Source: Escherichia coli (GTDB taxonomy: Bacteria > Pseudomonadota > Gammaproteobacteria > Enterobacterales > Enterobacteriaceae). Taken from it: a stretch of 64,000 bases of DNA. Shown here in pieces: positions 59,401-62,400 of this stretch. Each line of letters opens with the position of its first letter. The first letter of the stretch is position 1. The stretch lies in assembly GCF_016026235.1 (NCBI RefSeq), contig NZ_CP065613.1; one strand, written 5' to 3'. A program made the position numbers.

Positions 59401-62400
59401 CAACGAGGCCTCGGCAGCAACGTTTTCTCCGCTGATTCATTTGAAGGATTTAACCGTACAAAGAAATGGCTATTTATATGCGACAGTTTATTCGACAAAA
59501 CGCCCAATTGCAGCCATTGTTGCGACTTCATATCAACGTCTTATAGCCCATTTTTATAATCATCTTATTTTTGCGTTACCCGCCGGTATTTTGGGGAGTC
59601 TTGTTCTGCTATTACTCTGGCTACGTATTCGACAAAACTATTTGTCTCCCAAACGCAAATTGCAACGCGCCCTCGAAAAACATCAGCTTTGCCTTTATTA
59701 CCAGCCAATAATTGATATCAAAACAGAAAAATGTATCGGCGCTGAAGCGTTGTTACGTTGGCCTGGTGAACAGGGGCAAGTAATGAATCCGGCAGAGTTT
59801 ATTCCGCTGGCAGAAAAGGAGGGGATGATCGAACAGGTAACTGATTATGTTATTGATAATGTCTTCCGCGATCTGGGCGCGTACCTTGCAACACATGCTG
59901 ATCGCTATGTTTCTATTAATCTGTCGGCCTCCGATTTTCATACGTCACGGTTGATAGCGCGAATCAATCAGAAAACAGAGCAATACGCGGTGCGTCCACA
60001 GCAAATTAAATTTGAAGTGACTGAACATGCATTTCTTGATGTCGACAAAATGACGCCGATTATTCTGGCTTTCCGCCAGGCCGGTTACGAAGTGGCAATT
60101 GATGATTTTGGTATTGGCTACTCTAACTTGCATAACCTTAAATCATTGAATGTCGATATTTTGAAAATCGACAAATCGTTTGTTGAGACGCTGACCACCC
60201 ATAAAACCAGTCATTTGATTGCGGAACATATCATCGAGCTGGCGCACAGCCTGGGGTTAAAAACAATCGCTGAAGGCGTCGAAACGGAGGAGCAGGTTAA
60301 CTGGCTGCGCAAACGCGGCGTGCGCTATTGCCAGGGCTGGTTTTTTGCGAAGGCGATGCCGCCGCAGGTGTTTATGCAATGGATGGAGCAATTACCCGCG
60401 CGGGAGTTAACGCGCGGGCAATAAAACTACAGGCGGTGGCGATAATCGCTGGGAGTGCGATCAAACTGCCGACGGAAAACGCGGGAGAAGGTCTGCTGAG
60501 AGACATAACCCAGGTCCATTGCGATATCAAAAATCGGACGCTCGGTGGTGCGCAACTCAACGGCGGCCAGTAACAGACGGCGTTGACGAATGTAATCGCC
60601 AAGCGTCTGATGCGTCACCGTGCGGAACATCCGTTGCAGGTACCACTTTGAATAGCCTGATTTTTTTGCGACGACATCAATGTTAAGCGGCTGGTCAATA
60701 TGCTCGTCAATCCATGCGATAAGATCCTGAATAATTTTCTGATGGGACATAAATCTGCCTCTTTTCAGTGTTCAGTTCGTTAATTCATCTGTTGGGGAGT
60801 ATAATTCCTCAAGTTAACTTGAGGTAAAGCGATTTATGGAAAAGAAATTACCCCGCATTAAAGCGCTGCTAACCCCCAGCGAAGTGGCGAAACGCAGCGG
60901 TGTGGCGGTATCGGCGCTGCATTTCTATGAAAGCAAAGGGTTGATTACCAGTGTCCGTAATAGCGGCAATCAGCGCCGATATAAACGTGATGTGTTGCGA
61001 TATGTCGCAATTATCAAAATTGCTCAGCGTATTGGCATTCCGCTGGCGACCATTGGTGAAGCGTTTGGCGTGTTGCCCGAAGGGCATACGTTAAGTGCGA
61101 AAGAGTGGAAACAGCTTTCGTCCCAATGGCGAGAAGAGTTGGATCGGCGCATTCATACCTTAGTGGCGCTGCGTGACGAATTGGATGGATGTATTGGTTG
61201 TGGCTGCCTTTCGCGCAGTGATTGCCCGTTGCGTAACCCGGGCGACCGCTTAGGAGAAGAAGGTACCGGCGCACGCTTGCTGGAAGATGAACAAAACTAA
61301 AGCGCCACAAGGGCGCTTTAGTTTGTTTTCCGGTCTTTGTCTTTCTCTCTATCCCGCTGGTACACAGGAGGGTTTCCCCCGACGTCAACACACCTCATTC
61401 GAGCACGTGGTGGAGGTTCCGGTTGGTGTTGATGCTTTAATTGTATGTCACCGGCGTTTCTTCGCCAGTGTAAAAGTATACTTTTTAGCCGCAATATTTT
61501 TGTCATCTTAGACGATTTTTTATCGCAATCCTCAACGGTGTACGGCTCGATAACGCTGCAATCTTGCGCATCGACGATAACGTTTGCGCATCAATTGCCT
61601 GGTTTTTCATCGTCAAGACAATAAAAGAGAAAAAAGCAGCAAACTTCGGTTGAAAAAGCCGCTATGATCGCCGGATAATCGTTTGCTTTTTTTACCACCC
61701 GTTTTGTATGCGCGGAGCTAAACGTTTGCTTTTTTGCGACGCAGCAAATTGTCGCAAACCTGGAGCAGGAAGATAACGTTTCGCTGGCAGGGGATTGTCC
61801 GCCACGCATCTTGACGAAAATTAAACTCTCAGGGGATGTTCTCTTATGTCTACGCCATCAGCGCGTACCGGCGGTTCACTCGACGCCTGGTTTAAAATTT
61901 CACAACGTGGAAGCACTGTCCGTCAGGAAGTGGTTGCCGGGTTAACAACGTTTCTGGCGATGGTCTACTCGGTCATCGTCGTTCCAGGTATGTTGGGTAA
62001 AGCAGGCTTCCCGCCTGCGGCAGTTTTCGTTGCAACCTGTCTGGTTGCCGGACTCGGTTCTATCGTGATGGGTCTGTGGGCTAATCTGCCGTTGGCGATT
62101 GGTTGCGCCATCTCCCTGACGGCGTTTACCGCATTCAGCCTGGTGCTGGGGCAACATATTAGCGTACCTGTCGCGCTGGGTGCCGTGTTCCTGATGGGGG
62201 TGCTGTTTACGGTAATTTCTGCCACGGGTATCCGTAGCTGGATTTTGCGCAACTTGCCGCACGGTGTGGCGCACGGCACGGGGATCGGTATCGGTCTGTT
62301 CCTGCTGCTCATTGCCGCTAATGGTGTCGGTCTGGTGATTAAAAACCCGCTTGATGGTCTGCCCGTTGCGCTGGGTGATTTCGCGACCTTCCCGGTGATT

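Follow-up and report, generated by a model that had tools for sequence, protein, structure and literature searches.

The sraL gene and its surroundings

The window, by which we mean the whole stretch of DNA that was analysed, comprises 64,000 nucleotides of Escherichia coli (NCBI RefSeq assembly GCF_016026235.1, contig NZ_CP065613.1). The locus described here holds the soxR gene on the plus strand and, tail to tail with it on the minus strand, the gene of a small RNA (sRNA) known as SraL or RyjA. The features of the locus are as follows.

60836..61300, plus strand: soxR coding sequence (154 aa), the convergent partner of sraL, from the open reading frame (ORF) list and from the RefSeq annotation of identical and K-12 sequence
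61293..61433, minus strand: sraL/ryjA sRNA gene, 141 nt, +1 being the A at 61433, from the match to RF01408 and the identity to K-12 ryjA
61293..61300, common to both strands: 8 nt in which the 3' end of the sRNA runs into the final codons and the stop codon of soxR, from the soxR ORF (60836-61300) and the sRNA end (61293); K-12 is alike
61294..61324, common to both strands: shared terminator hairpin of 13 bp with a 5-nt loop, at which SraL ends and soxR transcription probably terminates, from a terminator scan and folding
61400..61409, minus strand: SraL nt 25-34 (CACGUGCUCG), a segment predicted to be able to pair with the tig leader, from duplex prediction
61412..61423, minus strand: conserved 5' motif, SraL nt 11-22 (ACCGGAACCUCC), in the loop of the first stem, at upper-case positions of the Rfam consensus
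61437..61445, minus strand: promoter, with the -10 box TACAAT (-12 to -7, 61440-61445) followed by TAA (-6 to -4, 61437-61439), from sequence and conservation
61463..61468, minus strand: -35-like CTGGCG (-35 to -30), within a conserved CTGGCRAA block, from the conservation of upstream regions

We are almost certain that positions 61293-61433 of the minus strand are the E. coli SraL (RyjA) gene, which encodes a trans-acting sRNA of 141 nt and has a TACAAT/TAA promoter and, as its terminator, the hairpin at the soxR stop codon. An earlier note on this DNA, made from the sequence alone, had proposed SraL/RyjA in its K-12 arrangement and had named an Rfam scan and an alignment with K-12 sraL as checks. 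Both bear the proposal out. The Rfam scan of the whole window places RF01408 (sraL) at 61293-61433 on the minus strand, with a score of 153.3 bits (gathering score 39; E = 1.1e-34), and the match spans model positions 1-142 of 142 and is not truncated. The K-12 ncRNA ryjA (b4459) is identical to the window gene at 141 of 141 positions. In K-12 MG1655, ryjA is annotated at 4277926-4278066 on the minus strand, between soxR (4277469-4277933) and ghxP, and it overlaps the end of soxR by 8 nt, as it does in the window. The gene order pdeC, soxS, soxR, sraL, ghxP is common to the two.

Beyond the sequence of the RNA, its position and the overlap, the terminator and the core promoter are also the same in K-12. 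The difference between the two strains is limited to three single-base changes in the 261 bases aligned, all of them upstream of sraL, at -21, -55 and -76, and all in poorly conserved columns of the upstream alignment. The first nucleotide of RyjA in E. coli is an A (PMC12956327), as is the base at 61433 of the window. The soxR stop codon ends at 61300, which puts this base 133 nt further on and near the "about 140 nt" past soxR at which the minus-strand unit had been expected to start. Of 5426 complete E. coli genomes, 5420 contain the 401-bp region around the site, and in several strains, O169:H41 ones among them, it shows 100% identity.

Promoter, RNA structure and coding potential

Conservation upstream of the gene outlines a promoter. 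Across 54 distinct upstream regions, TAnAnT at -12 to -7 and TAA at -6 to -4 keep a constant distance from +1, and the CTGGCRAA block at -35 to -28 is conserved at 70-99% per column. The spacer between the two blocks varies in sequence while its length is fixed. The 17-bp spacing suggests that CTGGCG serves as the -35 box. The -10 box and the TAA motif are features of RpoS-type promoters (Silva et al., 2013; PMC3753932). In Salmonella, the sraL promoter is bound by RpoS in vivo (ChIP) and is rpoS-dependent, and reporter data are available for it (PMC3753932). In E. coli K-12, RyjA is listed among the RpoS-regulated, starvation-induced sRNAs in a 2024 preprint (10.1101/2024.06.20.599902). Transcription of SraL would start at the A at 61433 from the TACAAT -10 box and its TAA discriminator, with RpoS, according to the literature, as the sigma factor. 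The range 61290-61480 that the earlier note had given for the sRNA takes in the gene together with its core promoter to about -47.

Homologues were collected by an exact-pattern scan with two conserved motifs, taking one genome per species. The scan yielded 55 loci, nearly all of them from Enterobacteriaceae (Escherichia, Citrobacter, Salmonella, Enterobacter, Klebsiella, Raoultella, Leclercia, Lelliottia, Cedecea, Trabulsiella, Atlantibacter and others). The gene soxR is convergent with sraL and lies immediately downstream of it in 54 of the 55.

The comparison of these sequences supports the secondary structure that Rfam gives for SraL, since compensatory changes back it. In 50 distinct sequences, 95.9% of the cells of the consensus structure are paired, compared with 40-53% in controls in which the partner was slid by 1-3 columns. 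Compensatory changes occur in 8 pairs, including four of the seven pairs of the 5' stem and three of the six pairs of the third stem, and none of 500 shuffles reached this level of covariation. Because two exact motifs served to choose the loci, helices 2 and 5 could not vary in this set. The same holds for SraL nt 11-22, whose motif was itself a search pattern and whose invariance in the alignment is thus by construction. The MFE of the full-length RNA is barely better than that of shuffles (z = -1.94). As the fold of the whole RNA is marginal by this measure, it is the covariation, not the energy, that bears the structural argument.

One might read the hairpin as the terminator of soxR and nothing else, with an incidental likeness to an sRNA on the minus strand and no separate gene. 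In a RefSeq/PGAP record whose sequence at this locus matches the window at 100%, no ncRNA is annotated in the gap between soxR and ghxP, and a scan with the sigma-70 consensus found no minus-strand promoter for sraL. Sigma-S promoters often have no good -35 box. We do not count the miss by the sigma-70 scan against sraL because its -35 box is weak, as is often the case in RpoS promoters. The silence of the identical record means that the gene is easily missed in strains other than K-12. What speaks against a mere soxR terminator is that the whole covariance model of 142 positions is matched, well beyond the hairpin, that conservation with compensatory changes extends across genera over some 110 nt upstream of the hairpin, and that a conserved promoter stands at a fixed distance. 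The RNA has moreover been detected in Salmonella and E. coli, and the published Northern blots and 5'/3' mapping already refute this reading (PMC3753932, PMC2190706, PMC5389530, PMC12956327). We give it practically no credence and keep to a separate sRNA gene.

It is also highly improbable that the locus encodes a small protein, whether instead of the RNA regulator or besides it. Mechanically called ORFs do overlap the locus, one of 62 aa at 61318-61506 on the minus strand and one of 74 aa at 61287-61511 on the plus strand, and the sRNA itself contains a frame of 26 codons that begins with an AUG at nt 36 (window 61398-61396). This AUG is not preceded by a Shine-Dalgarno sequence. Among 50 homologues, an ATG occupies the aligned start in only 9, and the commonest triplet there is CTG (24). 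Many homologues have stops at codons 3-5 or 16-17, and indels shift the frame. The 62-aa ORF has its start in poorly conserved sequence, 73 nt upstream of +1. Variation at the locus tracks base-pairing and not codons. The 26-codon, 62-aa and 74-aa frames were accordingly rejected on the 50 homologues.

The shared hairpin and the convergent soxR gene

The 3' end of SraL is an inverted repeat that sits on the soxR stop codon. Its stem at 61294-61324 has 13 pairs, 6 of which are G-C. The earlier note had recognised a strong hairpin here at 61299-61320; the hairpin is there, and it is larger than had been stated. Folded as plus-strand RNA, it has an energy of -20.5 kcal/mol with z = -5.2. As minus-strand RNA the energy is again -20.5 kcal/mol, with z = -7.1, and on either strand 0 of 200 shuffles are as good. 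A U-rich run follows the hairpin on each strand, in keeping with the proposal that it is bidirectional. Read in the sense of the sRNA, AAAACAAACUAAA stands 5' of the G+C core and UUUAGUUUUG stands 3' of it. On the plus strand, the core is followed by UUUAGUUUGUUUU, in which 10 of 13 bases are U and the run is interrupted. Conservation extends to the A-tract 5' of the core, which has 6-10 A per 13 nt (median 9) in 50 homologues. In the same 50 sequences the terminator stem is nearly invariant, and a single compensatory change, from U-A to G-C, is found in Pseudocitrobacter.

The A-tract on one side and the U-tract on the other make it plausible that the hairpin terminates both soxR and sraL. 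SraL transcription would end at this Rho-independent hairpin of 13 bp. Judged by its sequence, the hairpin most likely terminates convergent soxR transcription too, and Viegas et al. (2007) had described the SraL terminator as overlapping that of soxR (PMC2190706). The terminator scan called the hairpin on the minus strand only, and it was silent on the plus strand because most of the U-tract is counted within the extended stem. The arrangement resembles known bidirectional intrinsic terminators, which also have one G+C-rich hairpin flanked by an A-tract and a U-tract between two convergent units. It differs from them in that the plus-strand U-run is interrupted (UUUAGUUUGUUUU) and is not called by a simple scan. 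Termination of soxR here is put forward as probable. The annotation of K-12 places the 3' end of SraL at this hairpin.

The overlap of the two genes is 8 nt when measured to the soxR coding sequence, and it would be about 31 nt or more if the soxR mRNA ends past the shared hairpin. Its extent in coding sequence differs among lineages. Among 54 species genomes, 12 have the soxR stop codon within the stem and 21 have it 0-3 nt outside. The distance is 8-50 nt in 15 others and exceeds 80 nt in the remaining 6. Coding overlap goes with a SoxR that ends in ...LLEDEQN, as in Escherichia and the Citrobacter amalonaticus group, or with some other C-terminal extension of the protein. In most other genera, SoxR ends in ...LLEED or ...LLEDD. 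The coding overlap is lineage-specific, being confined to Escherichia and a few other lineages, whereas the tail-to-tail layout and the hairpin are conserved across the Enterobacteriaceae.

These observations bear on the claim of the earlier note that SraL and soxR form a cis-antisense pair. In a functional pair, the 3' ends of the two RNAs would anneal or the two polymerases would collide, and expression of one would reduce the other or lead to its processing, for instance by RNase III cleavage of the duplex. The geometry is as claimed, since the 3' ends overlap by 8 nt of soxR coding sequence, and by the whole hairpin if soxR terminates there. The hairpin overlaps the soxR stop or lies within 3 nt of it in 33 of the 54 species genomes. 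In an RNase III mutant, Viegas et al. (2007) saw SraL give a changed pattern of bands, and they suggested a cut in the overlapping terminators (PMC2190706). The functional part of the claim is overstated. Where the two RNAs are complementary, they consist of the terminator stem, and in each of them this stem is already paired with itself (-20.5 kcal/mol each). Only 12 of the 54 genomes have a coding overlap, and in another 21 of the 54 the distance between the stop and the hairpin ranges from 8 nt to over 500 nt. In the publications on SraL that were covered, soxR figures as the neighbouring gene only, apart from the suggested RNase III cut (PMC2190706). Publications that name both SraL and soxR, as far as they were covered, report no regulation of soxR by SraL beyond that 2007 suggestion, and the literature covered on soxR and bidirectional terminators likewise yielded nothing beyond it. 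The SraL targets that have been demonstrated are regulated in trans. We consider a functional cis-antisense pair unlikely. As regulation goes unreported in the publications covered, the complementary segment is self-paired and the overlap is not conserved, SraL and soxR are treated here as a convergent gene pair with a common terminator.

A narrower version of the idea concerns Escherichia, in which the soxR frame would have grown by 2-3 codons (…EDEQN*) into the arm of the SraL terminator. The shared hairpin would then be more than a terminator, and either the transcription of sraL in stationary phase or the SraL RNA itself would act in cis on soxR, by collision of polymerases or through RNase III cleavage of a duplex of the 3' ends. 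We regard this as improbable. If true, cis action of SraL on soxR would be a lineage-specific link between the RpoS response and the superoxide sensor.

Published regulation in trans and comparison with Salmonella

What can be said of the expression of SraL, of its dependence on RpoS and Hfq and of target regulation in the present strain rests on the literature and would carry over by analogy. SraL builds up in stationary phase (PMC3753932, PMC2190706). In Salmonella it is stabilised about 3-fold by Hfq (PMC2190706, PMC5389530). Binding of E. coli SraL to Hfq was left unconfirmed by an early co-immunoprecipitation study, according to the account of that study in PMC2190706. The RNA is polyadenylated, and poly(A) polymerase I promotes its decay in both species (PMC2190706, PMC5389530). 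Two targets are known in Salmonella. SraL pairs with the tig leader through 7 and 3 bp just upstream of the ribosome-binding site and thereby lowers trigger factor, and the pairing was verified by compensatory mutations (PMC3753932). It also pairs with the rho leader and blocks premature Rho-dependent termination (Silva 2019, as described in PMC6582626 and PMC12360218). By extension from this work in Salmonella, SraL of the window would act in trans in two ways, by pairing with the tig leader, which would result in less trigger factor, and by pairing with the rho leader, which would result in antitermination.

The predicted tig-pairing site is present in E. coli, and its nucleotides (CACGUGCUC) are common to E. 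coli and Salmonella. The tig and rho duplexes were recovered from restricted-window predictions; those computed with full-length SraL against the tig and rho leaders were unrealistically long and were discarded. SraL nt 25-34 and positions -29 to -19 of K-12 tig (CGAGCAC-U-GUG) form a predicted duplex of 7+3 bp with an energy of -16.4 kcal/mol, which 10% of shuffled leaders equal; such a short duplex is not significant (p about 0.10 vs shuffles). The tig site lies directly upstream of the GAGG Shine-Dalgarno sequence in K-12. The predicted duplex fits the published "7 and 3 bp" interaction of Salmonella (PMC3753932). Few parts of the family are less conserved than the tig-pairing segment; helix 3 is only 77% paired, and Klebsiella and Raoultella differ there. 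For rho, the best candidate joins SraL 80-106 to positions -152 to -118 of the leader with -18.8 kcal/mol; at p about 0.22 vs shuffles, it is uninformative.

SraL was discovered in E. coli in 2001 (PMC3753932, PMC2190706). It is already known as an annotated gene of K-12, as an Rfam family and as an sRNA with published targets, and the locus carries little weight as a discovery. It does illustrate that a real sRNA can be recognised from raw sequence alone. What is new is limited to bookkeeping, that is, the exact window coordinates now fixed for the sraL gene, its promoter and its terminator, the lineage-specific coding overlap with soxR, and the absence of the feature from an identical RefSeq/PGAP record.

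The orthologue that has been characterised by experiment is SraL of Salmonella enterica serovar Typhimurium, which shares with the window gene the family, the structure, the convergent soxR and the -10/TAA features (PMC3753932). The two differ in that regulation of tig and rho has been shown in Salmonella only and not in E. coli. The genomic setting differs as well. In the Salmonella genome sampled, that of S. enterica subsp. diarizonae, the soxR stop lies 32 nt beyond the hairpin, and there is no coding overlap. The downstream neighbour in Salmonella is a putative glutathione S-transferase (PMC3753932), whereas in the window it is ghxP.

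The soxR-sraL overlap

The 3' arm of the SraL terminator is the reverse complement of the last codons and stop codon of soxR in Escherichia and the Citrobacter amalonaticus group, where SoxR ends in ...LLEDEQN* (window 61287-61300). In most genera SoxR ends in ...LLEED* or ...LLEDD* and is two codons shorter; the loci compared with most others were L004, L011, L024, L027, L029, L030, L034 and L041. Because the extra codons and the stop are the part complementary to the terminator arm, the 8-nt overlap between the soxR coding sequence and the sRNA is lineage-specific.

Variable parts of SraL and its promoter

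Few parts of the family are less conserved in our 50-sequence sample than the stretch of SraL pairing with tig (window 61400-61409, minus strand; columns 34-49 of the alignment). Pairing of helix 3 reaches only 77% in the same alignment, and in Klebsiella and Raoultella the sequence of the tig-pairing segment is different and longer. This poor conservation differs from the 2013 description of the SraL-tig interaction region as well conserved (PMC3753932). Upstream of sraL, the window differs from K-12 at three single bases, all of which fall in promoter columns of low conservation.

Single-base differences from K-12 upstream of sraL
61454, position -21 of sraL
61488, position -55 of sraL
61509, position -76 of sraL

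Annotation and taxon labels

Despite a strong Rfam match to sraL, no ncRNA is annotated between soxR and ghxP in the RefSeq/PGAP record NZ_CP024273.1 (locus L002), whose sequence is 100% identical to the window over 61200-61600; its locus tags skip there from RS22440 to RS22460. Two further contigs, one labelled 'Bacillota bacterium' (L029, a MAG contig of 2.9 kb) and the other 'Chryseobacterium sp. 18061' (L037), contain a soxR-sraL locus of the typical enterobacterial kind. The sraL upstream region of L029 is identical to that of K-12, and both labels probably reflect contamination or mislabelling.

Other elements in the window

Copies of a AAACGTTTGC-like motif, which resembles the PurR operator core, cluster upstream of ghxP.

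Motif copies upstream of ghxP
61578-61587, plus strand, AAACGTTTGC-like motif
61677-61686, plus strand, AAACGTTTGC-like motif
61720-61729, plus strand, AAACGTTTGC-like motif
about 61776, further AACGTTTCG

The number of one-mismatch matches over the whole 64-kb window is not above chance; three of the six lie inside a 150-bp stretch of the ghxP upstream region. Other Rfam families were matched elsewhere, among them naRNA4, a family of paired-hairpin repeat sequences.

Other Rfam matches
15314-15510, minus strand, full-length lysine riboswitch aptamer (RF00168, 99.5 bits; gathering score 30)
17426-17496, plus strand, naRNA4 (RF02564, 79.5 bits)
27097-27167, plus strand, naRNA4 (RF02564, 67.4 bits)
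17562-17711, minus strand, STnc430 (RF02053, 77.7 bits)
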